Positions 1,227 to 57,941 of a stretch of DNA of 64,000 bases are shown piece by piece (the first letter of the stretch is position 1; each line of letters begins with the position of its first letter). Below the pieces are notes generated by a model. The model saw nothing but the letters and a program-made list of their open reading frames with translations. It was not told the DNA's origin and searched no databases. Origin of the DNA: a bacterium (GTDB lineage: Bacteria; Patescibacteriota; Minisyncoccia; Phycocordibacterales; UBA5272); contig JAYUJP010000027.1 of NCBI GenBank assembly GCA_043765155.1, forward strand, positions 1,349 to 65,348, written 5' to 3'. The position numbers and the translations under genes were made by a program.

Positions 1227-4200
1227 ATGAAAACAAATACTCCTCAAAACTCAATACATCTCAAACCATCTCTCACCCAGATATATTTTAAGGTATTTGC
1301 TTTTGTAATCATCGTCTCTACTTTATTCTCTGGAATCTCCCCCGCTTTTGCCGCCCTCCCCCAGTCCCTCTCCTACACCGCCGTCCTCCGCGACTCCACT
1401 GGCACCCCCCTCACCGGCACCAACGACTTTAAAGTGCGCTATTACGACGCTAGTACAGCAGGTATACTAATGTATGAAGAAGAATTCTTAGCAACCACTA
1501 TAAACACAGGAGGTACCTTCTTTCTCCCTCTAGGTACAGGATTACCAATAAGTGGTACCTTCTCTAGTATTAACTTCAATTCTCCTGTATTCATTACTCT
1601 AAATACTAGAATAAACTTAACTCCTACCTATGACGGAGAGATGAACCCTCGTATACCACTAAGATCAGTCCCCTACGCCCTTAACTCACAAAAGCTAGAT
1701 GGTAGAATAGTCGGAGGAGCAAATGGTGTAGTAGCCTATGATGCGTCATCCACCATTAACACTAATGGGCTGAATGCGAGCGGCACCATTAACGCTCTTG
1801 GTAATGTAAACATAGCGGGGACCACAACTGCTAGTAGTATATTTTCTACACTGATTAATTCTATTACAGGGATATTTTCTAATTTGTTTTTGACGAGTGT
1901 AGCGACTGGTACAGCTTCTGACTCAGTACTGGTAAGGGATACAGTAACAGGAGAAGTAAAGCAAGATACATTTGCTAACCTACTATCATCAGCTATTACT
2001 AATACTATATCTTTTGCGACGAGTACTAATGTGCTGACGAGTAATGTGGGAGGGGTGATCTCTACAACAGCTATTCCAGCTGGTGCATCATGTATACCAG
2101 GGGGGTCTTCTCCACTAACCAATGAATGCCAGGGTACTAGTGCCTTACAAGCTAATACAACAGGCGTACGTAATTCTGCTTTTGGAGATCTTACTCTTGC
2201 TTCGAATACAGTAGGAGTTTCAAATACGGCCTTGGGTTATTCTGCGCTCGCTGCTAATGTATCAGGAAGTAACAACGGAGCATTTGGAGGATTCTCATTA
2301 TTTAAAAATGTTAGCGGTAACGGTAACTTGGCTAATGGTATTAGCTCACTTTTTAATAATGTAAGCGGGTCACGTAATACTGGAGTTGGTAATTTTTCGC
2401 TTACTAAACTTGTAACCGGAGTAGAAAATATAGCTATTGGATTCAACGCTGGGTTTAGCCAGCTTGGAGGTGACAGCAATATAATAATAGGTTCAAATCT
2501 TGATGTCCCAGATCTTAATGGATCTAATCAGTTAAATATTGGAGACATAATATATGGTGTTGGTGTATCGACTAGCGGTGGAGGAAATATTGGTATAGGT
2601 ACAACCACACCAAACGCGCAGTTCACAACAACAGGCTCAGTGCAATTTGCGGGAATTGGAAATAGCGCCACCAACACAAATATATTAACCGTTGACGCGG
2701 CTGGTAATGTAGAGACAAGAAGCATAGTCTCTCTGCTTGCTGCTTCAGCCAGCACAACAAATATAGTTAGCTTTGCAACCTCTACTAATATATTTACCAG
2801 TAATGTTAATGGGGTAGTGAGTACTACAAGTTTGGCGGGGTTAGTAAAAAACACAAAATGGTACTCTGAAAACTTAGCTGCACCTATAATTGCACCTGTT
2901 GCCACTGGGCTAGCATCTATCGCGGTTGGAGATGGAGCGGCTGCAACAGGACGAAATATATATGCATTTGGTGATGAGGCAGGTAGAGGTAGTAATAGTT
3001 CATATTCTAACTTTTTTGGATGGAGGGCTGGTAAAAATTCTGGCAATGGTGGTACATCCGAGAATAATTTCTTTGGTATAGCGGCAGGAGAAGGAGCAAC
3101 AAATGTTGCGGGTGGAAACTTTTTTGGAAGTAGGTCTGGAGGAGACGCTATAAATGCCAGCTTCTCAAATTTCTTTGGGGAAAGTGCAGGAGAGCTTGCG
3201 ATAAGGGCCAGCTTCTCAAATTTCTTTGGACGGGCTGCAGGATCTGGAGCAATTAACGCCAACAATTCGAACTTCTTTGGACTTGAAGCTGGTCGTAACG
3301 CGTCAAATGCATATGGTTCAAATTTTTATGGAGTAGGCGCAGGATATGAAGCAATTAATGCCAACAACTCTAATTTCCTTGGTACAGGTGCTGGTAATTT
3401 TGCTACAAATGCCGCTAACTCTATATTTATAGGTACCAATGCTGGAACAAGTGACCTCGTAGATAATACTACTGGTGGTACAAGTATACTCATAGGAAGA
3501 AATACAAACACTGGAGGATTTTCAAACTCTATCGCAATAGGTGAGAGTGCGATAAATGATAGGGTTAATCAATTCTTAGTGGGACCTAATTATTCCGACT
3601 TTTCATTTAGAGGAGTTAACTATGTCTTTCCTGCTAGTCAGGGAGCGACTGGTACAACCCTTGTGAATGATGGCTCAGGAGTATTAAGCTGGGCAGCTGC
3701 TGGAGCTAGCACTTCCACAAATGCCTGGAGTCTACTTGGCAATGCTGGGACTAACCCCGCAGTTAATTTTATAGGAACAACAGATGCGCAAGACTTTATC
3801 ATAAGGACAGATAATGTGCAGACAGGTAAAATAAGTGCAGATGGCACAGTTATATCTTTTGGGATAAATGCTGGAGTCGGCACCACTAATGCACTAAGCT
3901 CAAGTTTTATTGGCGTAAATTCTGGAAGCGGAGCAATAAACGCCTTTTTTTCAAACTTCTTTGGCCAAAATGCTGGTGCTAATGTTATTAACGCTAACAG
4001 ATCAAACTTTATTGGAATAAATGCCGGCAATGGTGCATCTGCTGCTCAGTACTCTAACTTGTTTGGATTTAACGCTGGAGTTGACGCCACTAATGCTATC
4101 CATTCTAACTTTATTGGTACTGGATCTGGACAAGATGCAATCAACTCGCAACGTTCTAACTTTATAGGATTTGATGCTGGTGCAGGAGCTCCAGCTGCAT

Positions 4201-7200
4201 CCAATTCAAACTTCTTTGGATCCAGTGCTGGATTTAATGCTTTTAACGCAAGTAGTTCTAACTTTATTGGTAATAGTGCTGGATTTGCAGCATCTAACGC
4301 TAACGCCTCAAACTTCTTTGGACCTGCTGCTGGATTTGGCGCGACTGGCGCAGATAACTCAAATTTTATCGGTGCTCAATCTGGACAGGACGCAATTAAT
4401 TCAAGATTTTCTAATTTTGTAGGGTATGCAGCCGGCTCGGGAGCTTTGAACGCAGATAATTCCAACTTTTTTGGCCAAAATGCGGGGTCTAATACAAATG
4501 GTGCGGCTAGTTCAAACTTCTTTGGATCCAGTGCTGGATTTGGTGCGACTGGCGCTGCTAATTCTAACTTTTTTGGTACCAATGCTGGAAATAGTTCTGC
4601 TAATGCTGGCAACTCTAACTTCTTTGGTCTGAGTGCTGGATTTTTTGCAATTAACGCAAATAATTCCAATTTCTTTGGTGCAAATGCTGGACTTGCTGCT
4701 GCTGACGCCGCCAACTCGAACTTCTTTGGACTTGAAGCTGGTAGTTACGCATCAAATGCATATGGTTCAAATTTTTATGGAGTAAGCGCAGGATACGGAG
4801 CCGTTAATGCTAATAATTCTAACTTCTTTGGTACTGGTGCTGGTAATATTGCTACAAATGCCGCTAATTCTATATTTATAGGTACCAATGCTGGAGCGAG
4901 TGACATTGTAGATAATACTGCTGGTGGTACAAGCATATTAATAGGTAGTGGCAGTAATACTGGCGGCTTCTCAAACTCTATTGCTCTCGGCGCTAATGCA
5001 GTTAATACCAAAACAAATCAATTCTTAGTCGGACCAGATTATTCTGACTTTTCATTCCGTGGAATTAATTACACTTTTCCAAGTGTTCAAGGAAATGCCG
5101 GTGATACATTGACCAATGATGGTACGGGAGTATTAAGCTGGTCAACTTTAACCGGTGGAGGAAGGCCGATTACCGCATCAAATGGTCTTACATTATTAGG
5201 GGTAGACGTGAAGCTGGGGGGAGCGCTTAGTCAGGATACTTCTATAACACAAGGCGCTTTTGATTTAAGTTTCGCTAGAAATGGTTATGAGCTTCAAAAT
5301 TCTAATGCGGCCCCATATCTTGGTATTGGCGGAGCTATAACTGCTAATAATTTTGTTGGTGCTCGTTATACTGATGCTACTAGCGACGTTCAAAATGGTG
5401 TAATACAATTTGGCGGTCCGCGCCTTGCGAGCTTAAGAAGTTATAATAATAGTTTTGGGTATGAGACCGACTCCTCAATTTATGCTTCTCAGTCTGGTCT
5501 AAATTTACTTTTTAATGATAGTAACTCGGTAAATACAAGCGCAAATGTTGATGTGAATGGTCTGATCGTAAGTACTAGTGATGTTACAAGTAGCAATACG
5601 GGATTTCTTGGTCTTACAAATTCGGGTACAGCAAATTTTACAGTATCTGGTCCTAGCATATCTAGCGGACTATCGCTCAATAATGTCTCCGGCTCAGTGA
5701 GGCTATCTCAGCAGATTTTTGGCACAACACAGTCTATGAACATAGTCTCTGGAGGTATAGAATTTGATACACAGTCTACAAATAGATTTCGTATAGAAAA
5801 TAACGGAGACTTAAAAGCATTTGCATATGGATCTGGCAGAAATGATACAAGTGTCAGTACGCCATTTAACTTTTTATATACTGACTCAACAGGAGTCTTA
5901 TCGTCAGCACCTATTTCACTACTCGGGGGTAATGCCAGCAGCAGTATTATAGCAAGTAACGGACTTAACGCATCTGGCACAAATATAAAACTCGGTGGTG
6001 TGCTAACTCAAAATACAAATATAAACTTTGCTACAAATACTCTCACCTTTGACCAGAGTAACTTAAATTCTCGTTTTAAAATAAAAGGAGCGAGTGGATA
6101 TTCTACCCCATCAAATAGAACCCAATCTCTTTTTGAGGCTGAGCATTATGCAAATGCTGGATTCTCGATAGAAAGTTTTGAAAGTGGCCCACTCCTCGCA
6201 AATAAACATGGGACCAAATTAAATTTTACCAATAATCTATCTAACCCCTCTCTTGATCCTCTGGGCTCGTATATTAGAGGTGATAATCTTACAGGTGACT
6301 TTGAGTTTGGCACTAATGCGGGAGAGTCCGTAACATTAGGATCAGGTGGAGTTAGCGTTAATTCAAATAGTTTTATTTATCTATTTGGTAGTGATATACA
6401 ATTATACTCGCCAATAGTAAATTTTAGTCAATTTGGTAGCACTAGAGATGATAGTGCCTCTACTACACCGTCTAATTTTCTATATACAGATATTAACGGC
6501 TCTTTAAAATCTGCGCCAGTATCACTACTCGGTGGTAACTCGACTAGCTCATGGTCTCTGCTTGGCAATGCTGGCACTAATCCTGCAACTACCTTTTTAG
6601 GTACTACAGATGCACAAGACTTATCTATCAGAACTAATAATACAGAAGTTGCAAGGTTTGGGCAAAATAATAATTTTGCATTTGGTGTTGGTGCTCAGGC
6701 TGTTAACTCAGATAGCATAGCTATGGGAGCAGGAGCAGGAGCAGGAGCAACTAATGCACCATTTTCTAACTTCTTTGGGTCTGGTGCTGGATTTGGAGCT
6801 ATAAATGCAGCTAACTCTATATTTATAGGTACAAATGCTGGTGCAAATGACGCAGTAAATAATACTCTTGGTGCCGATACAAGTATACTCATAGGTAACA
6901 ATACAAACACAGGAGGATTTTCAAATTCTATCGCACTCGGTGAGGGAGCGGTAAACACATCTGCAAATCAGCTTTACATTAGGAACGCGATTACTAATTT
7001 TAATCTAGCTGGAGTAAATTACAGTTTTCCAACTGTGCAAGGCGCTCTTAATACTACTCTGAGTAACGATGGAAATGGAAACTTAACCTGGGTTGCACCC
7101 GGAGCAGGATCTATCACAGCATCAAATGGACTTAACGCTGTCGGAGTAGATGTAAGACTGGGTGGTGCTTTAAACACCCCAACTACAATAAACGCAACTG

Positions 7201-9785
7201 GAACAAACGACTTAACCATTTCCGGTACGTCGTATTCAAATAGTACGGGACTGTTTTCGGTCAACAGATTTGCAGGCACCTCAAACGCTGGAGCTGCAAT
7301 ACAAGCCAATTCTACCGCTGGTGCTGGACTTAATATGCTACAAAATGTAGGAGGTAGATTTGATGCTGTTAGTTTTGCTAATGGAGCGGGTACTAATTAT
7401 GGAACCCTGAACACAGCTAGCTTGGGACAGTCTGATACCTTTGCTACAAATGTGGGATCTAGAAGTGTGGCATCTATGAGTATAGGTGGTGGTAGCGTAG
7501 GCCAGTTACGCGGAGCTGAGAATGTTTCTAGTATCACAAATGGATCCGCTGGTAGAGCTTTTGGATCTTTGAATGAAGTAAATTTACAAAATGGTACAAG
7601 TGTAAATGAAGCATATGGTGTATTTACTGCTCTGAGTAAGCCAAGTGGTGCAACAGTAGGTAGATACTCAGGCTTTATTATGGAGGATAATAATACTGGT
7701 GTCGCTAATAGAGCAGGTCTTGCCTTGGTCTCACTTTCTAGTGTAAATTATACTGGCGAATGGGGTATATATAATGCTCTGAATAGAAATAATGCAATTA
7801 ATGGATCACTGATGGTGGGATCTACCACAGCACCAACAGAAAGACTAGACGTAGCGGGTAATCTCAGACTAAGAGGTGCCTTTATGCCGGGCAATCAGGC
7901 TGGTGGAGTGGGGTCACTACTCATATCTCAGGGTCCTAACGTTGCGCCAATATGGTCCAGTACTTCTACACTCGGATTATTGTCTAGTGCAAATAATGGC
8001 CTAACAGTAAACCCGGCAGGCAATGCGCAGCTTGGTGGTGGTCTATTACAAGACACAACTATTATCAATAATAACTTTGCGCTAGATATTGGTACAGGTA
8101 TAAATGGTCTTAAGGTAGCAGCTAATGGGCAAGTGGGTATTGGAAATAATATTGGAGCTATTCCAGGTGCAACTCTCTTAGTAAAAGATACAGTGGCGGG
8201 ATTTGCCTCACTCAATGTAGTCGGAGGGACTTCTGGAGGAGGAGCAATTACTAGATTTATAAATGACACTGGAGCGACTTACTTAACTGGTCTATCAGGT
8301 TCAAATAATAGTGCGCTTGGACTAGGTAATTATATTATACGCGATCAAAATGCAGGATTAAACAGATTGGTAGTAGCCTCAAATGGTAATGTAGGAATAG
8401 GAGATTTTACAAATGTGAATCCAGTAGAAAAGCTATCTGTAGCTGGAAATATAAACATATCTTCTGGTAGTGCTTATATGCTTAATGGTGTGAATGTGTT
8501 AAGATCACAAACCGCTTTGAATAATATTTATGCTGGTCCAGCTGGAAATCTAACTGGTACAGGTCAATACAATACCGCTATAGGATATGATTCATTTAAT
8601 GTAAACACTACTGGACAGCAAAACACTGCGACCGGTTTTCATTCTATGAATGGTAACACCACAGGTTCATTTAACACTGCAAATGGTCTAAATTCACTGT
8701 ATTTCAACTCTACAGGGAGTAACAATAACGCATTTGGATATAATGCTCTCTTTAGAACAACTTCATCTGGAAATAATGCATTCGGTAATGCTGCTTTGCA
8801 AGAAAATGTAAGTGGGATAGATAATGTGGCTATGGGTAATTCAACATTATCATTTTCATTAGGAAATACTAACTCAGCTTTTGGTTCGGCAGCCGGCGCA
8901 CTTTTAGTAAACGGTAATAATAATACCTTCAGTGGCTACAAAGCTGGTTTTGCTCAAACAGCAGGTAGCAACAACTTGGTGCTTGGCGCAAATACGGATC
9001 TTGCAAACCTTACAGGTTCTAATCAGTTAAATATTGCAAATATTATTTTTGGTACAGGACTCACTGGTTCAGTTAGCGCACCGCTAGGTAATATAGGCCT
9101 CGGCACCACCACCCCCGCCGAGCGCCTTCAAGTCCTCGGCGACATCCGTATAGGTACAAGTGGTGTTAACGGCTGTCTCCAGAACTTTGCAGGTACGGCT
9201 ATAGCTGGTGTATGTAGTTCAGATGAAAACCTAAAGATAAATATACAAGATCTAGCTACTAGCACAATGGACAAATTCTCAAAATTAAGATTCGTCTCAT
9301 ATAACTGGAACAACACAGCAGGTGAATTATACAAAAAGGATACTACTGCCACCAATACGGGTATATTAGCGCAACAAGTAGAAGGTATATTCCCAGAACT
9401 AGTAACTACAGATAATAAAGGATACAAGGTAGTAGATATCTCAACTCTGTTTATGTATAGTATGCAAGTAACCAGAGACCTAATAAATAGATTAGACGCA
9501 GAAGTCATTAATCTTAAGAATATAGTAGCGAGCTCCCTCACCGCTGAGCGTATATATGTAAAGAGGGTAGAGGCGGAGGAGGTAATAACACAAAAGTTAT
9601 GTGTTAAAAGCGCGTGCGTGACCGAAACAGAATTTTTAGAAATTATAAATAATAGAAACAACACAAGCGCTAACAATAATATAAATACAAATACAAATAC
9701 AAATACAAATACAACAACAGATACTATGAGCACAAGTACTCAAGATGTACCAGCAGCTACTAGTACAGAAATAGTAATACCTTAA
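1227..9785 (+). CDS. Giant (2852 aa) secreted glycine-rich repeat fibre protein with a C-terminal intramolecular-chaperone (Peptidase S74 / endosialidase-chaperone-like) domain
   Basis: N-terminal signal peptide. About 30 tandem ~20-aa units of type SNFFGxxAGxxAxNAxx. Tail-fibre-like motifs WSLLGNAGTNPAVNFIGTTDAQD and NIGIGTTTPxxxLxVxG. C-terminal CSSDENLKINIQDL...LRFVSYNWNN...GILAQQVEGIFPELV...GYKVVDISTLFMYSMQ matches the S74 auto-cleaving chaperone (Ser-x4-Lys). Ends in an NTNTNT tail. Confidence 0.8.
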   Translation: MKTNTPQNSIHLKPSLTQIYFKVFAFVIIVSTLFSGISPAFAALPQSLSYTAVLRDSTGTPLTGTNDFKVRYYDASTAGILMYEEEFLATTINTGGTFFLPLGTGLPISGTFSSINFNSPVFITLNTRINLTPTYDGEMNPRIPLRSVPYALNSQKLDGRIVGGANGVVAYDASSTINTNGLNASGTINALGNVNIAGTTTASSIFSTLINSITGIFSNLFLTSVATGTASDSVLVRDTVTGEVKQDTFANLLSSAITNTISFATSTNVLTSNVGGVISTTAIPAGASCIPGGSSPLTNECQGTSALQANTTGVRNSAFGDLTLASNTVGVSNTALGYSALAANVSGSNNGAFGGFSLFKNVSGNGNLANGISSLFNNVSGSRNTGVGNFSLTKLVTGVENIAIGFNAGFSQLGGDSNIIIGSNLDVPDLNGSNQLNIGDIIYGVGVSTSGGGNIGIGTTTPNAQFTTTGSVQFAGIGNSATNTNILTVDAAGNVETRSIVSLLAASASTTNIVSFATSTNIFTSNVNGVVSTTSLAGLVKNTKWYSENLAAPIIAPVATGLASIAVGDGAAATGRNIYAFGDEAGRGSNSSYSNFFGWRAGKNSGNGGTSENNFFGIAAGEGATNVAGGNFFGSRSGGDAINASFSNFFGESAGELAIRASFSNFFGRAAGSGAINANNSNFFGLEAGRNASNAYGSNFYGVGAGYEAINANNSNFLGTGAGNFATNAANSIFIGTNAGTSDLVDNTTGGTSILIGRNTNTGGFSNSIAIGESAINDRVNQFLVGPNYSDFSFRGVNYVFPASQGATGTTLVNDGSGVLSWAAAGASTSTNAWSLLGNAGTNPAVNFIGTTDAQDFIIRTDNVQTGKISADGTVISFGINAGVGTTNALSSSFIGVNSGSGAINAFFSNFFGQNAGANVINANRSNFIGINAGNGASAAQYSNLFGFNAGVDATNAIHSNFIGTGSGQDAINSQRSNFIGFDAGAGAPAASNSNFFGSSAGFNAFNASSSNFIGNSAGFAASNANASNFFGPAAGFGATGADNSNFIGAQSGQDAINSRFSNFVGYAAGSGALNADNSNFFGQNAGSNTNGAASSNFFGSSAGFGATGAANSNFFGTNAGNSSANAGNSNFFGLSAGFFAINANNSNFFGANAGLAAADAANSNFFGLEAGSYASNAYGSNFYGVSAGYGAVNANNSNFFGTGAGNIATNAANSIFIGTNAGASDIVDNTAGGTSILIGSGSNTGGFSNSIALGANAVNTKTNQFLVGPDYSDFSFRGINYTFPSVQGNAGDTLTNDGTGVLSWSTLTGGGRPITASNGLTLLGVDVKLGGALSQDTSITQGAFDLSFARNGYELQNSNAAPYLGIGGAITANNFVGARYTDATSDVQNGVIQFGGPRLASLRSYNNSFGYETDSSIYASQSGLNLLFNDSNSVNTSANVDVNGLIVSTSDVTSSNTGFLGLTNSGTANFTVSGPSISSGLSLNNVSGSVRLSQQIFGTTQSMNIVSGGIEFDTQSTNRFRIENNGDLKAFAYGSGRNDTSVSTPFNFLYTDSTGVLSSAPISLLGGNASSSIIASNGLNASGTNIKLGGVLTQNTNINFATNTLTFDQSNLNSRFKIKGASGYSTPSNRTQSLFEAEHYANAGFSIESFESGPLLANKHGTKLNFTNNLSNPSLDPLGSYIRGDNLTGDFEFGTNAGESVTLGSGGVSVNSNSFIYLFGSDIQLYSPIVNFSQFGSTRDDSASTTPSNFLYTDINGSLKSAPVSLLGGNSTSSWSLLGNAGTNPATTFLGTTDAQDLSIRTNNTEVARFGQNNNFAFGVGAQAVNSDSIAMGAGAGAGATNAPFSNFFGSGAGFGAINAANSIFIGTNAGANDAVNNTLGADTSILIGNNTNTGGFSNSIALGEGAVNTSANQLYIRNAITNFNLAGVNYSFPTVQGALNTTLSNDGNGNLTWVAPGAGSITASNGLNAVGVDVRLGGALNTPTTINATGTNDLTISGTSYSNSTGLFSVNRFAGTSNAGAAIQANSTAGAGLNMLQNVGGRFDAVSFANGAGTNYGTLNTASLGQSDTFATNVGSRSVASMSIGGGSVGQLRGAENVSSITNGSAGRAFGSLNEVNLQNGTSVNEAYGVFTALSKPSGATVGRYSGFIMEDNNTGVANRAGLALVSLSSVNYTGEWGIYNALNRNNAINGSLMVGSTTAPTERLDVAGNLRLRGAFMPGNQAGGVGSLLISQGPNVAPIWSSTSTLGLLSSANNGLTVNPAGNAQLGGGLLQDTTIINNNFALDIGTGINGLKVAANGQVGIGNNIGAIPGATLLVKDTVAGFASLNVVGGTSGGGAITRFINDTGATYLTGLSGSNNSALGLGNYIIRDQNAGLNRLVVASNGNVGIGDFTNVNPVEKLSVAGNINISSGSAYMLNGVNVLRSQTALNNIYAGPAGNLTGTGQYNTAIGYDSFNVNTTGQQNTATGFHSMNGNTTGSFNTANGLNSLYFNSTGSNNNAFGYNALFRTTSSGNNAFGNAALQENVSGIDNVAMGNSTLSFSLGNTNSAFGSAAGALLVNGNNNTFSGYKAGFAQTAGSNNLVLGANTDLANLTGSNQLNIANIIFGTGLTGSVSAPLGNIGLGTTTPAERLQVLGDIRIGTSGVNGCLQNFAGTAIAGVCSSDENLKINIQDLATSTMDKFSKLRFVSYNWNNTAGELYKKDTTATNTGILAQQVEGIFPELVTTDNKGYKVVDISTLFMYSMQVTRDLINRLDAEVINLKNIVASSLTAERIYVKRVEAEEVITQKLCVKSACVTETEFLEIINNRNNTSANNNINTNTNTNTNTTTDTMSTSTQDVPAATSTEIVIP

Positions 9786-12928: not shown

Positions 12929-13741
12929 ATGCAAGATTTAAAGTTAAACAAAAATTTAGAAAATCTTTACAAAGTTAGTTCAATACTCGTTATTATATTA
13001 TCAATAGTTGGATTACTATACGCTGTTAATATTTTTAGAGAAGGTAGGCTCATAGGAGCTAATGCTTCTAATACAATATCATTATCAGGTACTGGCAAGG
13101 TCACAGCTAAGCCGGACACAGCAACAATAACTTTTTCTGTGCGTGAACAGACTAAGCAGGCAAAGAAAACTGAATATGCTGATGAGGAAGATACCAAAGA
13201 GGTAAAAGAAAGTAAGGACAGAATTACAAAAAAGATAAATGTAGCATTAACAGATTTAAGCAAAATAGTAGACAAAAAAGATATAACAACCGAGACCTAC
13301 AATTCATACCCAAGATACTTTTATTATACAAATGGAGCGTCTGGCTTAATTGAAGGTTATGATGTATCACAAACAGTAAGTGTAAAAGTTATTGACATAA
13401 AAAACACTTCTAAAATTCTGGATATAATAAATAAAGCCGGTATAAGTGAGGTGTCAGGTCCAGATTACTACATTGAGAAAGACGAAGTTTTTAAAGATAA
13501 AGCAAGAGAAGATGCTATAAGTGAAGCAAAAAGAAAAGCTAATATTTTGGCCAAGCAATTGGGGGTCAGCGTACTGCGTATAGTTAGCTTTACAGAAGAT
13601 TCTAGTTATGCGCCAGTATTATACAGTGTGGAAAAATCAGACATCACAGGGAATGCCCAAGCTGCGTCAACAGAGCCATATTTACCAGAGGGAGAAAATG
13701 AAATCACTTCAAGCGTTACTATAACTTTTGAAATAAAATAA
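12929..13741 (+). CDS. SIMPL-domain (DUF541/BP26-like) periplasmic protein
   Basis: N-terminal TM/signal, then ISLSGTGKVTAKPDTATITFSV typical of SIMPL/BP26. Tandem paralog of the next gene. Confidence 0.65.
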   Translation: MQDLKLNKNLENLYKVSSILVIILSIVGLLYAVNIFREGRLIGANASNTISLSGTGKVTAKPDTATITFSVREQTKQAKKTEYADEEDTKEVKESKDRITKKINVALTDLSKIVDKKDITTETYNSYPRYFYYTNGASGLIEGYDVSQTVSVKVIDIKNTSKILDIINKAGISEVSGPDYYIEKDEVFKDKAREDAISEAKRKANILAKQLGVSVLRIVSFTEDSSYAPVLYSVEKSDITGNAQAASTEPYLPEGENEITSSVTITFEIK

Positions 13742-13764: not shown

Positions 13765-14526
13765 ATGCAAGAAAAATTAAACAAAAACCTAAGTATAGTA
13801 TATTCAACAGCAGCAATGTTAATGATCACTCTTTGTGTGGTAGGGGTATTATACGCTATCAATCTTTTTAGAGAGGGTAGACTAATAGGGTCAAGTGCTT
13901 CTAACACTATCTCAGTGTCAGGTACTGGTAAGGTCACAGCCAAGCCTGATATTTCAAATATAACATTCACTGTGCGTGAGCAGGCCAAAGATAACAAAGA
14001 GGGACAAGATAAAATAGCCAAGAAAATTAGTATTGCACTCACTGATCTTAAAAAGATAATTGACAAAAAAGATATTAAGACCAATACTTATAATTCTTAT
14101 CCTAGATATTCATATCCTCTTAATGCAGCGGCCAAGCTAGACGGTTATGATGTAACTCAGAACGTAACAGTAAAAGTTAGAAATGTAGATGATGTAGCCA
14201 AAGTTTTGGATATAATAAGCAAAGCTGGTATTAATGAGGTATCAGGACCAGAATATTCTGTTGATAATGATAACAAGTACAAAGATGAAGCTAGAGAAAT
14301 GGCTATCAAGGATGCAAAAAGTAAAGCAGAAAAATTGGCTTCTCAGCTCGGTGTTAATCTTGTTCGTATAGTTAGCTTCTCAGAGAATGCTGGTGGGTAC
14401 GTACAGCCTATGTATATGATGAAGGCAGAGGGTAAAGTTATGTCCGACTCAGCCGTAGCACCTCAGTTACCAGTAGGTGAAAATGAGATAAGTTCAAATA
14501 TTAATATAATATTTGAGATAAAGTAA
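13765..14526 (+). CDS. SIMPL-domain (DUF541/BP26-like) periplasmic protein, paralog
   Basis: ISVSGTGKVTAKPDISNITFTV. Colinear similarity to 12929..13741 throughout. Confidence 0.65.
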   Translation: MQEKLNKNLSIVYSTAAMLMITLCVVGVLYAINLFREGRLIGSSASNTISVSGTGKVTAKPDISNITFTVREQAKDNKEGQDKIAKKISIALTDLKKIIDKKDIKTNTYNSYPRYSYPLNAAAKLDGYDVTQNVTVKVRNVDDVAKVLDIISKAGINEVSGPEYSVDNDNKYKDEAREMAIKDAKSKAEKLASQLGVNLVRIVSFSENAGGYVQPMYMMKAEGKVMSDSAVAPQLPVGENEISSNINIIFEIK

Positions 14527-15705: not shown

Positions 15706-17253
15706 ATGTATATGCAAAAGACATTTAATAATATTTCAAGTTACATTTTATTAGCGACCCCAGTACTAGTTAGTAGTTTATTTATTTATAAGTCACAATT
15801 TCCAGCTTGGGCCAATACTTTATTCTTGTCTCTATTGCTAGCTTTTCTAATTTCTGTTTTGAATTTAAAAAATATTAGAAATAAAAAAGAAGTTAACTTA
15901 CTAAGTTTAGCTATTATAGCTTTGGGTGTTATAGCGTCAGCTGTTTTTGTAATTTTAGATTCTCAGAAGATTAGCTTTGCTCTTTTTGGAAAGGGCTTAA
16001 CTGAGTGGACAGGGATAAGTATATTATCCCTTTTCGTATTCGCAGCTTATTTTATAAATATAAAATCTAAAAAAATTATAGCCATAGCAGCAGCCTCTAT
16101 CGCTATAATTTATACAGTTATAAATTTTATTTTTATAAAGTATTTACCAAGCGTGGCTCAGTATACAGGATATCTAAACATACCAATGGTATCTTTTTCA
16201 AAGCTACTTAATTACGCATTTATACTATGTGTCATTATATTAGCCGCCTCGCTTGTTAATTACTTTATGGAGAAAAAGGGTTATGTTTTTGCTAATATAA
16301 AATCTAGCATTTATGTCTTATCTCTATACATAATAGTACCAGTTATTTTATTTGTAGCAATATGTTCTTATACTTTAAGATACATAGCTGCTTATAATTA
16401 TATACAAGCAGGACAAGAGTACTCAGCTGGTAATTATGTAAAAGCCCGAGAGTCTATAAATAGAGCCATAACAATATCACCGTTTGATGTATATTATGCA
16501 GGCCGTATAGAGATGATAAGTACCGAGATACAGACCCTACTTAATTCTACCTCTACTGATAAGCAGGCTCTAGAGAAAAAGTATAAAGAATTAGTCGAGT
16601 ATCAAATCAGCGATGCCAAAAAAGCAGTCGCCTATGACTCTAAGAATCCTTCTAATTATATGGCACTAGGTCTCGCATATGAGAGATCAATGCTACTTAC
16701 AAAAGAAGGTGGATACAAATTAGCAGCAGAAGCCTATGAGCAAGCACGTGCCATTGCTGAGGATAAGGACTATGTTGATGTGGTAAAGGCTAAGCTATCA
16801 TTCTCGGCTGATAAGGAGCAGGATGCTCTGGTATCATTGGATAGAGCTCTTAATTATAATGCATCATCAGCGCCAGCATTATACATATCTTCTCAGTATT
16901 ATGCTCTCAAGAAAAATCTTAAATCAGCTATAGATTATGGTGAGAAAACAGTAGCAGTAGCACCAAATGCGGTAGATGCCAGAATGCATCTAGGATTATT
17001 ATATCTTGAAAATAATAACATAGACGGAGCCATACAGCTATTTGGTTCAGCTTTTGTACTATCTGAGCAGAGAGATAACGCAGCTCTTTATTATTTGGGG
17101 CTAGCTTACAAAGAGAAAAAAGATATTGCTAATCTTAAATTAGTTCTTAGTGAATTAGAAAAGAGAGTAGACCCAAATCTAAAAGAAGTAAAAGATCTTA
17201 GATCTTTTCTGGATTCAAATACAGCAGAAGTAAAAGTTGAAAAGAAAAAGTAA
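15706..17253 (+). CDS. Polytopic membrane protein with C-terminal TPR repeats (possibly a PMT/DUF2723-like glycosyltransferase)
   Basis: About 9 predicted TM helices followed by TPR-like helical repeats. Confidence 0.4.
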   Translation: MYMQKTFNNISSYILLATPVLVSSLFIYKSQFPAWANTLFLSLLLAFLISVLNLKNIRNKKEVNLLSLAIIALGVIASAVFVILDSQKISFALFGKGLTEWTGISILSLFVFAAYFINIKSKKIIAIAAASIAIIYTVINFIFIKYLPSVAQYTGYLNIPMVSFSKLLNYAFILCVIILAASLVNYFMEKKGYVFANIKSSIYVLSLYIIVPVILFVAICSYTLRYIAAYNYIQAGQEYSAGNYVKARESINRAITISPFDVYYAGRIEMISTEIQTLLNSTSTDKQALEKKYKELVEYQISDAKKAVAYDSKNPSNYMALGLAYERSMLLTKEGGYKLAAEAYEQARAIAEDKDYVDVVKAKLSFSADKEQDALVSLDRALNYNASSAPALYISSQYYALKKNLKSAIDYGEKTVAVAPNAVDARMHLGLLYLENNNIDGAIQLFGSAFVLSEQRDNAALYYLGLAYKEKKDIANLKLVLSELEKRVDPNLKEVKDLRSFLDSNTAEVKVEKKK

Positions 17254-21441: not shown

Positions 21442-21651
21442 TTTTAAAATATAAATAAGCAAAAAATATTTCTAAAATAGTTATAAAATAAAAAAGCATA
21501 AACAAGAAATAAGTGGCTAAAAAGCTTACAAAATAAAGGTTAAATATAGCTTGACAAATGTAATATATTATGTAATAATAGTAGAATCATTAACCCAGAG
21601 CCAAATCGTTGGCCAGTTGGTCAATGAAGCTCGTTCACAAGGAGATTATCC

Positions 21652-21933
21652 GTGAAAAAAACAATTGCTCTAATGCTGGCCGTTTCTGTTATTCTTGCTG
21701 GCTGTGGCAAGCCGATGACAACCAGCAAAAAAGAATATCCAACATACGGCCTATTCAACGAAAGCTCTGCGAAGAGCAAAGACGTGTGCTACGAGATATC
21801 GGTCGGAAACATCGTCTGGTCAATTGTTTTGGTTGAAACTCTCATTGCTCCGATTTATTTTGTCGGATGGAGTTTGTATAACCCTGTGCGTATGAAAAAA
21901 GACGCAAACGATCAATGTACGATTGACAGCTAA
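21652..21933 (+). CDS. Small lipoprotein, YceK/DUF1375-like, on a GC-rich (foreign-looking) island. GTG start.
   Basis: AAGGAG SD 7 nt before GTG. Lipobox LAGC. SIVLVETLIAPIYFVGW resembles YceK SLVFDTLLLPIDI. Local GC about 45-50% versus about 28% in the flanks. Confidence 0.55.
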   Translation: MKKTIALMLAVSVILAGCGKPMTTSKKEYPTYGLFNESSAKSKDVCYEISVGNIVWSIVLVETLIAPIYFVGWSLYNPVRMKKDANDQCTIDS

Positions 21934-21935
21934 AC

Positions 21936-21982
21936 CCCGCCACACTCACGGAAAACCCGTTGCAGTTGTGGCGGGTTTTTTA
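21936..21982 (+). terminator. Rho-independent terminator of the island lipoprotein gene
   Basis: CCCGCCACA...TGTGGCGGG followed by TTTTTTAT. Confidence 0.7.
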
Positions 21983-21997
21983 TTGTAATTTTTATTC

Positions 21998-28665: not shown

Positions 28666-30075
28666 ATGAAAAAGAATTTATTATTTATTTTAGTGGGCAT
28701 ATTTTTTATAAATATTATTTTTGTAAAAAGTATTTTCGCTTTGCAGATTAGCGAGATTATGTATGACCCCGCGGGTAGCGACACCGGTAATGAGTGGATA
28801 GAGTTATATAATGATACGGGTAGCAGTATTAACCTAACCACTTATAAATTTTTTGAAAATAATGTTAATCACGGCATAACTGCAAATCAAGGAGGTAGTA
28901 GTATTAGTGCTGGCGAATATGTAGTGTTAGCTGATAATCCTACTAACTTTCTGGCGCAGCATGCAGGATATGTTGGTAAAATATTTGACAGTGCTTTTTC
29001 ACTTTCAAATAGCGGCGAATATTTAGAGATGCGAGACGCTAGTAATATTAACTTGTTTTCTGTAACCTATATTACAAATAACGACGCAAATGGTACCGGA
29101 GGAACTTTAAATTATATTGCAGGAGCTACCTCGACCTGGCAAGTTTTTATAGAGTCTCCAGGAGTAGTGTCACCGCAAAACGCTGTACAAAATAATTCTG
29201 CTAATGCTACCAGCAGCAACTCTACCTCTACGCCTAGCGCTACAACTACTAGCTCAAGCGCTACAAATACAACAACAAATACAGGTGCTACTAATTTTTA
29301 CAGCTCAGGTTATACAAATAAGACTTATACCCTTGGTGATCTTAATATGCTAACCCCAAAAGAAATATGGACTGTGGCTGGTGCCAATACCTACTTTTTT
29401 GTTAAGCCTATAGATTCAAAAAAGAATACAGTGCCTAGTAATACTTATTGGTCATTTGGTGATGGGGCAGAAGGTCTTGGCTCTACTACCACCCACAGAT
29501 ATTATAATGCGGGGTATTATACTGCTTTTGTCGAGAGTGAGATTAGTAATGCCTATGGTATTGAGCGTATAGCGGTAAATGTAGCAAGTCCGGACATATC
29601 AATAAGTGAAATTGGGGATAATTATATTATTATCAAAAATAATAGTAGCACAGAATTAAATATTGGAGGATTTATTATTGGTAGCGATCAGGGATTTTTT
29701 AAGCTATCGCGTCACCTTATTTTAAAAGAAAATTCTGAGCTAAAAATAGACGGTAGAGTAATGGGATTTACAAATCTTACCAACCCTAAAATATTATCTT
29801 CTGATATGGCTAACATATCTGTATATAAGAATAAAGCTAATATAAATCAAGAAATAAAATCAGAAATCCCTAATGCCACTTCTACCTTACAGATAAATAA
29901 AAAAGTCATATTGTCTAAAAATTATCTTTATAAAAATAATCAGTACAAAAAAGACTTAAACCCAAAAGAAAAATCTACAAGCTCTGTAGCATCACTCGCC
30001 GCTAATATAACTCCACCTGTGGACATTACACCTATCAAAAAGGTGAAAAATTGGTTATACTGGTTATATGAATAA
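28666..30075 (+). CDS. Secreted lamin-tail-domain (LTD) protein with a PKD-like domain
   Basis: Signal peptide. LTD motif ISEIMYDPAGSDTGNEWIELYN, and a second LTD-like copy. PKD-like WSFGDGAEGLGSTTTHRYYNAGYYTAFV. Confidence 0.65.
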   Translation: MKKNLLFILVGIFFINIIFVKSIFALQISEIMYDPAGSDTGNEWIELYNDTGSSINLTTYKFFENNVNHGITANQGGSSISAGEYVVLADNPTNFLAQHAGYVGKIFDSAFSLSNSGEYLEMRDASNINLFSVTYITNNDANGTGGTLNYIAGATSTWQVFIESPGVVSPQNAVQNNSANATSSNSTSTPSATTTSSSATNTTTNTGATNFYSSGYTNKTYTLGDLNMLTPKEIWTVAGANTYFFVKPIDSKKNTVPSNTYWSFGDGAEGLGSTTTHRYYNAGYYTAFVESEISNAYGIERIAVNVASPDISISEIGDNYIIIKNNSSTELNIGGFIIGSDQGFFKLSRHLILKENSELKIDGRVMGFTNLTNPKILSSDMANISVYKNKANINQEIKSEIPNATSTLQINKKVILSKNYLYKNNQYKKDLNPKEKSTSSVASLAANITPPVDITPIKKVKNWLYWLYE

Positions 30076-53412: not shown

Positions 53413-53553
53413 TTTGTCATTATTTATGATATAATCATGCTTAAGATAAAGTATAGATATAGCTTAAAACCCTAAAAAGTTGAGCTATGTTGAAAATCCG
53501 TTCTGTGCTGATTAGGTAGGAATAGGAAATGGACCCGACTTTATTTTCTTTAA

Positions 53554-53590
53554 GCCCAGGTGGTGCCAAGTTCAGTAGAGGTAGACACGC
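53554..53590 (+). pseudogene. Degenerate 5' fragment of tRNA-Leu (duplicate of the first about 28-37 nt of the downstream tRNA-Leu)
   Basis: TTTAAGCCCAGGTGGTG and GGTAGACACGC shared with 53631..53660. No T-arm or acceptor 3' half follows. Confidence 0.5.
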
Positions 53591-53633
53591 TTTGTGTTAA
53601 CTAAAACTTTATTAGCAGCATTTGGCAATTTAA

Positions 53634-53718
53634 GCCCAGGTGGTGAAATTGGTAGACACGCTTGCCTTAGGAGCATGTGGAGCAATCCGTGAAGGTTCAA
53701 GTCCTTTCCTGGGCACCA
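53634..53718 (+). tRNA. tRNA-Leu (anticodon TAG), CCA encoded
   Basis: GCCCAGG acceptor. D-arm GTG-AAATTGGTAGA-CAC. Anticodon loop CTTAGGA. Long variable arm. T-arm GAAGG-TTCAAGT-CCTTT. There is one T:T mismatch in the anticodon stem. Confidence 0.7.
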
Positions 53719-53775: not shown

Positions 53776-54111
53776 ATGACACCAGATTATATAGATTACG
53801 AAGAAATGTTAGAAATTGATGATTCAAGTGATTTTATTAATTTATTGACTGAGAGAACGTCAACCTTTGGAAAATTATTTGATCTGCTAGATGAAATGAT
53901 TTCTTGGGAAGAAATAAACACTACTATCTCAATTTCTGACTCTGAAGATGGATCAGGAGCAATGATAAAAAGACTGTTTTCAGATAAAACAAAAGCTTTT
54001 GAAATATTATCTTTCATGAAAAAACTCGATAAGATTACTGGATCAAGTACTTTACAAGAAGCAATAATTGCTAAAACTGCAATGGATAGAGTTTACCTTG
54101 GTAAAATTTAA
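53776..54111 (+). CDS. Small acidic hypothetical protein, sole cargo of the tRNA-Leu-flanked segment
   Basis: ORF track. pI strongly acidic. No recognisable domain. Confidence 0.35.
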   Translation: MTPDYIDYEEMLEIDDSSDFINLLTERTSTFGKLFDLLDEMISWEEINTTISISDSEDGSGAMIKRLFSDKTKAFEILSFMKKLDKITGSSTLQEAIIAKTAMDRVYLGKI

Positions 54112-54359: not shown

Positions 54360-54378
54360 CAAGTCCTTTCCTGGGCAC
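54360..54378 (+). repeat. Direct repeat of the tRNA-Leu 3' end (CAAGTCCTTTCCTGGGCAC), attR-like
   Basis: 19/19 identity with 53696..53714. No 5' half of a tRNA upstream of it. Confidence 0.6.
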
Positions 54379-55743: not shown

Positions 55744-56463
55744 ATGTCAGAAGAATCAAGAATCAAGAATCAAGATTTTAATAATCTAAATCATAAGCTT
55801 AATGATGCTAATTTCCTTTTAGAATATAAAAGTAAATATGATAACTATCAAGTGTCGCTAGTACCCAAAATATTAGGAGGATTTTTAGTCTGGAGCGGCA
55901 ATATATTTTACGGCGCTGCGCCGTCATATTTAAAGTTTAGAGCGATAGAGGTGATAGCGCGCGTACCTTATCAGTCTTGGGTCTCGGGCGCATATACGTT
56001 ACTCACATTATTTTATACTGATGAGAAAAAGGCGATAGACCTAGCTGACGCAAAATTATTTGCTAGGCATGCTAATGATAATGAGACAATGCATGTCGTT
56101 GTCATATCACATATTGTGAACGTAGAGCATAAAAATATAAATATATTTACTCACAGCATAATACCGATAATATTCTCTTTCTTTTACTTTTGGGTCTCAT
56201 ATCTATTATTTTTGATAAATAGAAAGTGGAGCTATGAGCTCAATTATCTTTTTGAAGATCATTCGTATCATCAGTATAATACCTTTATAAATAGATATGA
56301 GGAAAAGCTAAAAGCCAAAGAGGTATGCAGTGAATTTCTCAATTGGTATGGTCGGGGATGCAGTAACCAGTACGAATTCTTCTTATCGGTCCGTAATGAT
56401 GAGCTTATACATAGAAATTACAGTATCGAGGAATTAGAAAAATTTGAGAGAAATAATAAATAA
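55744..56463 (+). CDS. Alternative-oxidase-like membrane-bound di-iron carboxylate protein
   Basis: All four AOX iron-ligand motifs are present in order: IEVIARVP (cf. LETVAGVP), NDNETMHVV (NERMHL), LFEDHSYHQY (LEEEAIHSY), RNDELIHRN (RADEAHHRD). Hydrophobic membrane-binding segment between motifs 2 and 3. Confidence 0.55.
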   Translation: MSEESRIKNQDFNNLNHKLNDANFLLEYKSKYDNYQVSLVPKILGGFLVWSGNIFYGAAPSYLKFRAIEVIARVPYQSWVSGAYTLLTLFYTDEKKAIDLADAKLFARHANDNETMHVVVISHIVNVEHKNINIFTHSIIPIIFSFFYFWVSYLLFLINRKWSYELNYLFEDHSYHQYNTFINRYEEKLKAKEVCSEFLNWYGRGCSNQYEFFLSVRNDELIHRNYSIEELEKFERNNK

Positions 56464-56469
56464 AAAGAA

Positions 56470-56508
56470 AACCCGCCAAAACGAATTTTCTTCGTTGGCG
56501 GGTTTATT
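56470..56508. terminator. Bidirectional rho-independent terminator (AOX-like gene and island lipoprotein)
   Basis: AAAACCCGCCAA...TTGGCGGGTTTATTT. Confidence 0.7.
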
Positions 56509-56734
56509 TGCTACAGGTAGCAATTTGACCGTCGTTCCGGTACCTTACGCTTGCTCCTCCATTTGGGAACATAAGGTAAGCTATGCCGTCTATACAAATC
56601 GGTTTTGTCATAGGAACAATTTTCTGCTTTTCTGCTTCGTTGCTTACAACGGGAACGCTTTTTTGTCCTAATAAGTCGCAACCAGCGAGTGCGATAAACG
56701 TTACAAATACAGCGGTAATTTTAATAACTTTCAT
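56504..56734 (-). CDS. Small lipoprotein on the second GC-rich (foreign-looking) island
   Basis: AGGAGG SD 6 nt before ATG. Lipobox LAGC. Local GC about 45-50%. No close family recognised by eye. Confidence 0.5.
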   Translation of the reverse strand: MKVIKITAVFVTFIALAGCDLLGQKSVPVVSNEAEKQKIVPMTKPICIDGIAYLMFPNGGASVRYRNDGQIATCSK

Positions 56735-56897
56735 TTTGGCCTCCTTAGCCTGAATCTGGATTGACGAATATCAATCTCTGTGTTTTATTATATCAGATAT
56801 AAATAATTTTGTCAATAGCTATAAAGTCTTTTGTTTTCTTGACTTTGAGTACTACTTTTGCTATAAATAATAGTAAGAAAAATACTAATTTAAAAAT

Positions 56898-57542
56898 ATG
56901 AAAAATAAAGAAATAAATGAGATAGATATAGAAGATTTGGAAAGTCCAGAAGTAAATAGTGGAAGTTCAGCTGACGCTAATAGTAATAGCGATAGTGCAG
57001 AATCAGAATTTGTAGAGCTGGGTGATGATGGTGAGGAGTTGTCAGGAAAAGATGTGACAAAGAAATTAAGAGAGAGAATTAAAAAATTAGAAAGTGAAAA
57101 GCAGGACTATTTAAATAGTTGGCAGCGCGCTCTGGCTGATTATAAAAATAGGGAGATGCAGATTGAGAAAGAAAAGAAGGAGTGGGGGGGTTATGCTGTC
57201 AAAAGATTCACAGAAGAATTATTGGTAGTCATGGACACTTATGATGCTGCGAAAAGCAATAAGGCAGCCTGGGAGAAAGTTGATCAGAACTGGAGAGTAG
57301 GTATAGAATATATATTTATGACTTTTGAGAGTAAGCTAGCCGAGCAAGGTTTTGAAAAATTTGGAAAAGTTGGGGAGACCTATAATCCAGAACTTCATGA
57401 GGCATTAGCGACAGAAACTGCAACAGAAAATACAACAGCAAGTGAGAGCCAAAAATCAGACACAATTTCTCAAATAATAATGAGCGGTTATAATCATAAA
57501 GGTAAGCTATTCCGCGCTGCCAAGGTCAAGGTGTGGGGGTAA
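56898..57542 (+). CDS. grpE: Nucleotide exchange factor GrpE
   Basis: Coiled-coil N-terminus with ...QRALADYKNRE... (GrpE AE(F/Y)xNxRKR-like). C-terminal beta-domain. Confidence 0.75.
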   Translation: MKNKEINEIDIEDLESPEVNSGSSADANSNSDSAESEFVELGDDGEELSGKDVTKKLRERIKKLESEKQDYLNSWQRALADYKNREMQIEKEKKEWGGYAVKRFTEELLVVMDTYDAAKSNKAAWEKVDQNWRVGIEYIFMTFESKLAEQGFEKFGKVGETYNPELHEALATETATENTTASESQKSDTISQIIMSGYNHKGKLFRAAKVKVWG

Positions 57543-57638: not shown

Positions 57639-57941
57639 ATGCAAATAACAATACAAAAAAAGTTTTTAATATTGTACGAAATAGCAGAAAATGTATATGC
57701 TATGTTTTTGGTTATAGTTAACTTTGTATTTGAATTTGCTAGTCAAAGTGTAGAAGTGGTAAAAAGAGAGTTTAATAATTTTGTAGAAAAAACACATAAT
57801 TTTATACGCGCGCTATTTGGATTTAATATTTATAAGCTAAAATCTATAAAAATAGAAACGAAAACAAATAGTAAAAATATTAGCTTTAAAAATAATGACT
57901 TTTTGATATATTCTAACCTGTTAGCCCCACCAGTCTTATAA
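57639..57941 (+). CDS. Hypothetical protein (possibly spurious)
   Basis: ORF track only, between grpE and dnaK. Confidence 0.2.
   Translation: MQITIQKKFLILYEIAENVYAMFLVIVNFVFEFASQSVEVVKREFNNFVEKTHNFIRALFGFNIYKLKSIKIETKTNSKNISFKNNDFLIYSNLLAPPVL

Follow-up and report, generated by a model that had tools for sequence, protein, structure and literature searches.

A phage-type small lipoprotein gene, probably acquired horizontally, between an AOX-like gene and grpE in an AT-rich Patescibacteria genome

How does a small lipoprotein gene with a strong Shine-Dalgarno (SD) sequence come to lie between two cellular genes in the chromosome of a bacterium whose own genes essentially lack such sequences? 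The question is raised by a locus at positions 56,464 to 56,897 of a 64,000-nucleotide stretch of contig JAYUJP010000027.1 (assembly GCA_043765155.1, Patescibacteriota lineage UBA5272), which was analysed as a whole and is referred to here as the window. On its minus strand the locus encodes a 76-residue predicted lipoprotein, here termed lipo76, between a gene for an alternative oxidase (AOX)-like protein and grpE. The evidence suggests that the lipo76 unit is probably a horizontally acquired, moron-like phage-type lipoprotein gene that is kept under purifying selection.

The minus strand at 56504..56734 consists of one 76-codon open reading frame (ORF) with its stop codon at 56504-56506, the sole minus-strand ORF noted in 56464-56800. 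The protein starts with MKVIKITAVFVTFIALAGC (full sequence: MKVIKITAVFVTFIALAGCDLLGQKSVPVVSNEAEKQKIVPMTKPICIDGIAYLMFPNGGASVRYRNDGQIATCSK) and its N-terminus, M-K-V-I-K...FIA-L-A-G-C19, shows the features of a lipoprotein signal recognized by Lgt and LspA, i.e., a positively charged, lysine-bearing n-region, a hydrophobic core and a lipobox of the type [LVI][ASTVI][GAS]C (L16-A17-G18-C19 with Asp at +2; M1-C19 encoded by 56678..56734, minus strand). A lipobox scan in all six frames of the window returned lipo76, the ORF 21652..21933 of a second unit, termed island 1, and one implausible antisense ORF, and no others. Neither Lgt nor LspA was seen among the Pfam-annotated or scanned genes of the window. 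The SD sequence AAGGAGG (56740..56746, minus strand) is located 5 nt upstream of the ATG. A first-pass annotation of this DNA had described a minus-strand small lipoprotein gene with SD sequence and lipobox LAGC between the AOX-like gene and grpE, and the mapping of the ORF, the SD sequence and grpE bears this out in every part.

The gene is preceded by its own predicted promoter, an extended sigma-70 promoter of the form TTGACA-17-TGnTATAAT (56815..56787, minus strand), composed of the -35 hexamer TTGACA (56810..56815) and the extended -10 element TGATATAAT (56787..56795, with TG at 56795-56794 and TATAAT at 56792-56787). It is the only 12/12 match to TTGACA-17-TATAAT in the window, and a scan allowing one mismatch gave five matches in comparison to 1.27 expected. 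Placing the transcription start from the -10 element would result in a 5' untranslated region (UTR) of about 45 nt (56735..56780, minus strand) containing a small hairpin, GAUUGA-UAUUCG-UCAAUC, which folds weakly (-11.1 kcal/mol, z = -2.3). Rfam matched no RNA family in the lipo76 interval.

At the other end an intrinsic terminator hairpin, AACCCGCCAA...TTGGCGGGTT (56469..56505, acting on both strands), begins within the lipo76 stop codon and occupies the entire 40-nt gap between lipo76 and the convergent AOX-like gene (55744..56463). Its arms CCCGCCAA...TTGGCGGG fold with -21.4 kcal/mol (z = -6.3) in the sense of lipo76, followed by UUUUCUUUUU, and with -21.0 kcal/mol (z = -5.6) in the plus sense, confirming by folding in both directions the earlier proposal of a GC-rich bidirectional terminator shared with the AOX-like gene. 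The U-tract in the lipo76 sense, UUUUCUUUUUAUUU (56455..56468, minus strand), overlaps the AOX-like stop codon at 56461-56463. As the U-tract of the plus sense, UUUAUUUG, is poorer, the terminator suits lipo76 better than the AOX-like gene. On the other side of the unit, grpE (PF01025) starts at 56898 behind a promoter of its own, TTGACT-17-TATAAA. Taken together, the locus holds a complete, self-contained minus-strand unit proceeding from an extended sigma-70 promoter via a short leader and a strong SD sequence to a 76-codon ORF and an intrinsic terminator.

The SD sequence separates this unit from its surroundings. SD strength was calculated for 55 genes as the energy of the duplex between the anti-SD sequence and the 20 nt that precede the start codon, yielding a median of +0.7 kcal/mol with 52 of the 55 genes pairing more weakly than -4.3 kcal/mol. 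The native upstream regions of the window are A/T-rich and essentially devoid of SD sequences. Lipo76 has the strongest SD sequence of all (-12.0 kcal/mol), followed by the gene 28666..30075 encoding an LTD-domain protein (-9.5 kcal/mol) and the island-1 lipoprotein gene (-8.5 kcal/mol), and these three SD-bearing exceptions, i.e., the two lipoprotein genes and the LTD-domain gene, are all accessory. The closest relatives, represented by contigs L007 and L008, are equally poor in SD sequences, including their ribosomal-protein genes, grpE and dnaK; one exception in L008 (-7.9 kcal/mol) is an accessory ORF of 120 amino acids (4272-4634) inserted between rpsI and grpE. A search of the literature on SD usage in bacteria of the candidate phyla radiation yielded nothing usable. 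Since the host chromosome is AT-rich and its own genes lack SD sequences, the lipo76 unit is most likely a horizontal import.

The base composition itself is less distinctive. The first-pass annotation had described an island of about 45-50% GC, which overstates the values: the interval has 40.1% GC and the lipo76 ORF 40.7% compared to a window mean of 35.3% (standard deviation 6.4% for windows of ORF length), placing the ORF at the 77th percentile of the window and below dnaK and clpB. The GC content at third codon positions (GC3) is 0.364 for lipo76 versus 0.298 ± 0.053 for 57 ORFs, a deviation of only +1.25 standard deviations. GC-rich intrinsic terminators are also found after the native genes rplU, clpB and 15706..17253, and near-consensus promoters are also used by native genes such as grpE. 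The synonymous codon score of lipo76, -0.014, is lower than the 0.147 ± 0.060 of length-matched native fragments (z = -2.66); a score this low is reached by just 0.4% of the fragments and by no whole native gene. Only its SD sequence and its synonymous codon usage thus set lipo76 genuinely apart.

By its gene content the window is part of a Patescibacteria chromosome of Paceibacteria-like affiliation. It encodes the core proteins SecY, L21, S6, SSB, IF3, trigger factor, pyrophosphatase, DnaK and ClpB; GrpE is 64-66% identical to proteins of two unclassified metagenome-assembled genomes (MAGs) and 34-49% identical to those of about 50 MAGs labelled Paceibacteria, Nomurabacteria, Parcubacteria or "Saccharibacteria", and DnaK is 80% identical to that of L008. 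Of 51 related grpE loci, none codes for lipo76 or for any of the AOX-like, Ogt, AHSA1 and 70-residue proteins of the window. In L007 and L008, grpE comes after the rpsM-...-rpsI operon. The location of grpE behind other genes in the relatives, together with the absence of the accessory genes there, indicates that the region upstream of grpE is variable in this clade.

The neighbouring AOX-like gene (55744..56463, plus strand) encodes a di-iron alternative-oxidase-like protein (PF01786, 30.9 bits at a cut-off of 22.7), and upstream of it lie ogt, an ORF of 70 amino acids and an AHSA1/START-like gene. Still further upstream, a tRNA-Leu(tag) gene (tRNA region 53634-53718) ends with 19 nt, CAAGTCCTTTCCTGGGCAC, that are repeated exactly 662 nt downstream (53698-53716 and 54360-54378), the repeats enclosing an ORF of 111 amino acids (53776..54111). 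Just before the gene (53549-53592) there are second copies of two pieces of the 5'-part of the tRNA, one 17 nt and one 13 nt long. In their arrangement, these repeats resemble the att-type scars that an integrating or excising element leaves behind.

Foreign-looking signals at a single locus might also arise from an assembly chimera or a contamination, i.e., from a higher-GC fragment spliced into a Patescibacteria contig, a concern that the first-pass annotation had raised and which the differences in SD sequence and codon usage from the surrounding genes would fit. The window is 100% identical to the 124.5-kb ENA scaffold BUSI22-1_SAMN19433750_METAG-scaffold_9. Nine contigs, obtained from several samples with several assemblers, encode the exact lipo76 protein, and two more encode a 97% variant; at the DNA level, the identity of the lipo76-bearing contigs to the window is 100, 99.8, 99.3, 99.1, 96.6 and 93.8%. 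Other samples, assembled independently (ENA, Logan and MEGAHIT-style assemblies), show the same grpE-lipo76-AOX junctions, and both junctions are spanned by the 99.1% and the 93.8% contigs. Moreover, the 40 nt that separate lipo76 from the AOX-like gene are formed by a shared terminator overlapping both stop codons. As the junctions recur across samples, assemblers and sequence-distinct strains, chimerism and contamination are regarded as excluded for practical purposes, which closes this worry for the contig.

The same strains inform on selection. Between the 93.8%-identical strains, lipo76 differs by four synonymous and two non-synonymous substitutions (A17S, A34G), with zero changes in the C-terminal 44 codons including the mini-domain described below, and the 163-nt promoter/UTR interval carries one substitution. 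This pattern fits purifying selection, by which the unit may have been kept in the species since its arrival. A strain sweep specific for lipo76 was considered and rejected, as the tract of low divergence also takes in the 3' end of ogt and the AOX-like gene.

The relatives of the protein point to phages. Lipo76 matches the profile hidden Markov model of phrog_7772 (E = 6.9e-9, 36.8 bits, residues 5-76), and all of its small homologues match the same PHROG. The family consists of phage lipoproteins of about 60 amino acids with the motif C-[IV]-D-G-V-x-Y-L-x-F...D-G...C, and lipo76 carries the conserved cysteine pair bracketing D-G-[VI]-x-Y-L-x-F ... D-G. By this match, lipo76 belongs, as a divergent member, to a phage lipoprotein family that is catalogued but uncharacterised, and its host lineage is an unusual one for the family. 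Searched through a word index, 5.8 billion clusters gave only the 97% strain variant (P0001). Phmmer, run over all of 1.84 billion representatives, contributed three further small proteins, which brings its credible small relatives to four (P0001, P0005, P0008 and P0011), and a profile search contributed P0012; apart from the 97% variant none of the relatives in these collections is annotated as Patescibacteria. Orthologues of similar GC content in related AT-rich genomes, which the first-pass annotation had named as an observation that would speak against a foreign origin, were not found for lipo76. The small proteins comprise P0005 (82 amino acids, a lipoprotein 40% identical), P0011 (57 amino acids, a lipoprotein), P0008 (125 amino acids, with two copies of the mini-domain, adjoining a tyrosine integrase on contig L061) and P0012, which has a tandem paralogue. 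They share the pattern C-[IVY]-D-G-[VI]-x-Y-[LA]-x-F-x-x-G-G-x-x-[VI]...[DN]-G-x-[VI]-x-x-C, their contigs have 46-55% GC with the genes located behind SD sequences, and two of the genes have closely spaced small ORFs around them. On contig L062 (198-708), tandem paralogues of 73 and 71 amino acids carry a non-lipobox membrane anchor in place of the lipobox. Further phmmer matches (P0002-P0004, P0006, P0007, P0009, P0010) are repeat proteins with Ig-like, CARDB or DUF7930 repeats; as their scores add up from 4-9 weak stretches each, they were set aside as noise at the level of the motif.

A tblastn search of 50,697 phage genomes, in which the Campylobacter records were found with a typical family member as query, identified members in cultured phages: gp67 of Pseudomonas phage pf16 (YP_009595520, 60 amino acids, lipobox LAGC, ...CVDGVTYLQFTSGVTVKYTPEGKVATCK), XDJ15171 of the jumbo phage HRDY3, likewise a lipoprotein with the motif C-[IV]-D-G-V-x-Y-L, and 15 records of Campylobacter T4-like phages (CP220 CPT_0003, CPt10, CP21 and others), some with a PROSITE lipoprotein site. 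Pattern scans added members on 23 IMG/VR contigs and at 76 metagenome loci (about 100 loci), nearly all of them lipoproteins of 58-70 amino acids preceded by an SD sequence. Across the family loci the GC content of the gene tracks that of its contig, from 25 to 74%. The majority consensus is L-x-G-C-G-x-F-D-R-x-V-A-x-x-T-G-Y-x-x-x-C-V-D-G-V-x-Y-L-Q-F-x-S-G-x-x-V-x-Y-x-x-D-G-x-[IV]-x-T-C, and most members have the lipobox at the position equivalent to that of lipo76. Outside its own species, the relatives of lipo76 are located in phage genomes, IMG/VR contigs and uncharacterised metagenome contigs, with the exception of one locus of 70% GC discussed below. In pf16 the homologue is found among small ORFs and tRNA genes, and in CP220 it is a lone opposite-strand ORF between a topoisomerase gene and baseplate/terminase genes. 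The neighbours on two AT-rich family contigs (L133, L116) were not assignable to Patescibacteria or their phages.

Lipo76 resembles the phrog_7772 members in its lipobox signal peptide, its C-terminal cysteine-bracketed mini-domain, its size (57-89 amino acids in most members) and in being an SD-led gene among unrelated genes. It differs from the majority by a longer, unrelated linker instead of G-x-F-D-R-x-V-A-x-x-T-G-Y, by P-N-G-G-A with one inserted glycine versus P-S-G-A, by Asp instead of Gly at +2, and by its location in a Patescibacteria chromosome, whereas the annotated members are encoded by phages. With the inserted glycine it belongs to a minority G-G-insertion subtype together with P0005, P0011, P0008 and the second L062 paralogue. 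The CP220-type proteins, in contrast to lipo76, comprise 138 amino acids with an additional C-terminal half.

After a predicted signal-peptide II cut at L-A-G|C19, mature lipo76 would be a lipid-anchored peptide of 58 residues. In it, a flexible linker of about 27 residues would carry a 28-residue beta-hairpin mini-domain, C47-IDGIAYLMFPNGGASVRYRNDGQIAT-C74 (56513..56596, minus strand), probably closed by a C47-C74 disulfide. The AlphaFold2 model, computed from an alignment of six sequences, reaches good confidence only at residues 45-76 (pLDDT, the per-residue confidence score, 76-90), where it has three short strands. In the alignments C47, D49, Y53, G69 and C74 are invariant and G50, F56 and G60 nearly so. 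The Pfam family PF24052 (Phage_lipoprotein, gathering threshold 27 bits) does not match lipo76, and typical members of the phage family reach 14.8-16.8 bits (E = 0.007-0.03). A profile search of the PDB returned the G-box beta-hairpin repeats of CPAP/SAS-4 (E = 0.03-0.5), a weak similarity that was treated as probably convergent.

Phage morons, such as bor of phage lambda, are autonomous units of promoter, gene and terminator inserted between unrelated genes. Lipo76 is moron-like in that, by sequence prediction, a promoter of its own and a factor-independent terminator surround a single gene, and in its strand opposite to both neighbours, its atypical codons and its encoding a small lipoprotein. 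A comparable layout occurs elsewhere in the family, in the lone opposite-strand homologue of CP220 and in the L061 homologue beside a tyrosine integrase. In contrast to morons, which are located within a phage or prophage between conserved phage genes, lipo76 lies outside any recognisable prophage, and it has no Pfam Bor match; the likeness is an architectural analogy only. The unit would have arrived, moron-like, from a phage or an SD-using donor.

Small phage-encoded lipoproteins that act on receptors of the host envelope are known from T5 Llp, Rtp45/Cor and TP-J34 Ltp (bioRxiv 10.1101/2025.07.07.663478; PMC3952083). Rtp45/Cor-type proteins bind LptDE (bioRxiv 10.1101/2025.07.07.663478), Ltp mediates superinfection exclusion in Gram-positives (PMC3952083), and Llp and Rtp45 are small, with about 6-7 kDa in their mature forms (bioRxiv 10.1101/2025.07.07.663478; PMC3952083). 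Lipo76 is comparable to Llp and Rtp45 in size and has a conserved cysteine pair, whereas no similarity in sequence or fold to Llp, Rtp45/Cor or Ltp was detected with Pfam, NCBIfam, PDB and Foldseek. By analogy, lipo76 might face outward from the cell membrane, binding or masking a surface component, and a role in superinfection exclusion or receptor blocking would be our best guess. The data show how the gene is built, to which family it belongs, that its SD sequence and codons are atypical, that relatives lack it and that its junctions are real; the direction and the source of the transfer, the lipidation, the disulfide and the function of lipo76 are inferences.

Several observations weigh against a horizontally acquired phage-type gene. 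Sliding-window GC and GC3 show no significant excess at lipo76. An empty site that would mark the ends of an insertion was not found among the recovered strains, every variant having lipo76 at the same site. Since the AOX-like, ogt and AHSA1 genes next to it are likewise missing from the nearest relatives, the unit may have come alone or together with its neighbours. The flanks are cellular genes (AOX-like/ogt on one side, grpE-dnaK-clpB on the other), with no prophage and no phage genes within ±6 kb. The tRNA-Leu repeats do not enclose lipo76, which is located 2.1 kb past the second copy and hence not between the tRNA and its 3'-end repeat like a gene of a tRNA-integrated island. At least one family member is chromosomal, its neighbours being an RND adaptor gene on one side and uspA/cobT/cobQ on the other in a contig of 1.34 Mb with 70% GC, so that the family is not strictly viral. 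The majority segment C-G-x-F-D-R-x-V-A-x-x-T-G-Y is absent from lipo76, which has CDLLGQKSVPVVSNEAEKQKIVPMTKPI instead. Among 493 neighbour ORFs at 55 family loci no cluster occurs in more than six loci, and the members do not stand beside receptor-binding or lysis genes. Moreover, the phage collection contained no donor at the DNA level and the plasmid collection no credible protein match, and lipo76 had no match in Foldseek searches of BFVD and PDB at E <= 0.001, in the PDB sequences below E = 0.03, or to any Pfam or NCBIfam family.

Alternatively, lipo76 might be a native, vertically inherited Patescibacteria lipoprotein, with the phage proteins being host-derived or convergent and the strong expression signals reflecting high expression. 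The GC content within the range of the window, the near-consensus promoters and GC-rich terminators of native genes and the conservation of lipo76 in all strains found are in line with this, and lipoproteins exist in the clade, as the family of the 93-residue island-1 lipoprotein (lipo93) is present in Paceibacterota MAGs. It is nevertheless improbable, given that no homologue stands beside grpE in the 51 related genomes and none from Patescibacteria was found in the 5.8 billion clusters or the 1.84 billion representatives, that the roughly 100 relatives are on IMG/VR and metagenome contigs of 25-74% GC with the annotated ones being Pseudomonas and Campylobacter phage genes, and that lipo76 is an SD outlier in an SD-less lineage with a codon usage of z = -2.66. 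The foreign origin claimed in the first-pass annotation is thereby made likely by the SD sequence, the codon usage, the absence in 51 relatives and the phage family, and not by the GC signature on which it had leaned.

A foreign origin leaves room for other histories. The whole block from tRNA-Leu to grpE (the genes for the 111-residue protein, AHSA1, the 70-residue protein, ogt, the AOX-like protein and lipo76) might be one accessory island with lipo76 as its last gene: none of the block's genes is found near grpE in the relatives, where in L007 and L008 grpE follows the rpsI operon, the block begins at a tRNA gene with att-like repeats, and the low-divergence tract spans the 3' end of ogt, the AOX-like gene and lipo76 together. 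This seems unlikely, though worth keeping in view, because the other genes of the block are SD-less and native-like in codon usage and orientation, the second copy of the direct repeat already ends at 54378, before AHSA1 is reached, and lipo76 alone runs on the opposite strand under a promoter and a terminator of its own. The att-like repeats 2-3 kb away, as signs of a past integration, together with a small lipoprotein of a phage family with conserved cysteines, would also fit the remnant of a lysis cassette of a decayed prophage, lipo76 being an o-spanin-like (Rz1-type) outer-membrane lipoprotein. Such a role is unlikely, as no holin, endolysin or i-spanin gene adjoins lipo76 here or its homologues in pf16, CP220, HRDY3 and the viral contigs, and the mature peptide is not proline-rich. 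Moreover, lipo76 is a stand-alone gene with its own promoter and terminator, under purifying selection and with intact signals, and Patescibacteria envelopes are expected to lack an outer membrane, making this the origin that we would give very little credence to. Among these readings, a moron-like import kept by purifying selection accounts best for the SD sequence, the codon usage and the phage relatives.

It is conceivable, although rather doubtful in this specific form, that an SD-less Patescibacteria episymbiont took over a phage-type envelope lipoprotein from phages whose hosts use SD sequences and are probably Gram-negative, and has kept it as a constitutively expressed surface shield or adhesin. 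If true, the retained SD sequence would be a sequence tag for recent imports and a clue to the symbiont's network of hosts and viruses, and the gene would be a test case for the use of anti-SD pairing by these ribosomes. As native genes are essentially SD-less and the three clear exceptions are accessory, an SD sequence may mark recent import in such genomes; the scarcity of SD sequences also raises the question how the native transcripts are translated. The about 100 loci define a compact, previously uncharacterised phage lipoprotein family with a putative disulfide-bracketed beta-hairpin motif, with members in the cultured phages pf16, CP220/CPt10 and HRDY3, where its function is directly testable. 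Taken alone, lipo76 is a small accessory gene of modest importance.

Island 1 offers a comparison within the same window. Its lipoprotein gene (21652..21933, lipo93, 93 amino acids) is part of a unit at 21551..21985 (plus strand) with an 11/12 promoter including TG, the SD sequence AAGGAG, a lipobox and a terminator of -24.2 kcal/mol, with a GC3 of 0.468 and a codon usage of z = -4.7. Lipo76 is thus like island 1 in promoter, SD sequence, terminator, lipobox and atypical codons and differs from it in the protein family. The two proteins are unrelated (BLASTP E = 2.2). Lipo93 has 54 homologues of 44-82% identity including Paceibacterota/Patescibacteria MAG proteins, one of them labelled YceK-like, encoded for example on a Paceibacterota contig of 46% GC beside a zeta toxin gene and on a phage-like 85-kb contig of 57% GC, and it matches PHROGs only weakly and only with its N-terminal ~50 residues (E 0.014-0.067). 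The same architecture with different cargo and different distributions does not support a single donor for both islands, and the view that a single type of donor had supplied both insertions with like cargo was abandoned, even if both genes are codon-atypical. The stem CCCGCCA.../...TGGCGGG of the island-1 terminator, which the two islands share, was considered as a sign of common origin and discarded, being a generic GC-rich terminator of which native genes have similar ones. Downstream of island 1 are RelB/YafQ, FtsX/ABC, CAP, TrwB-like and LTD genes, an assortment that suggests a mobile region.

Some further features of the window were noted. Between grpE and dnaK, the plus strand encodes an ORF of 100 amino acids (57639..57941, 24% GC) that matches no Pfam family and has a counterpart of 41% identity at the same place in L008. 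A single ORF of 2852 amino acids occupies 1227..9785 (plus strand; GC 40.9%, position-2 GC 0.51). Finally, two adjacent paralogous SIMPL/DUF541 genes (12929..13741 and 13765..14526, plus strand; PF04402, E = 3e-35 and 3e-49) are located directly upstream of tRNA-Leu(gag) and tRNA-His.

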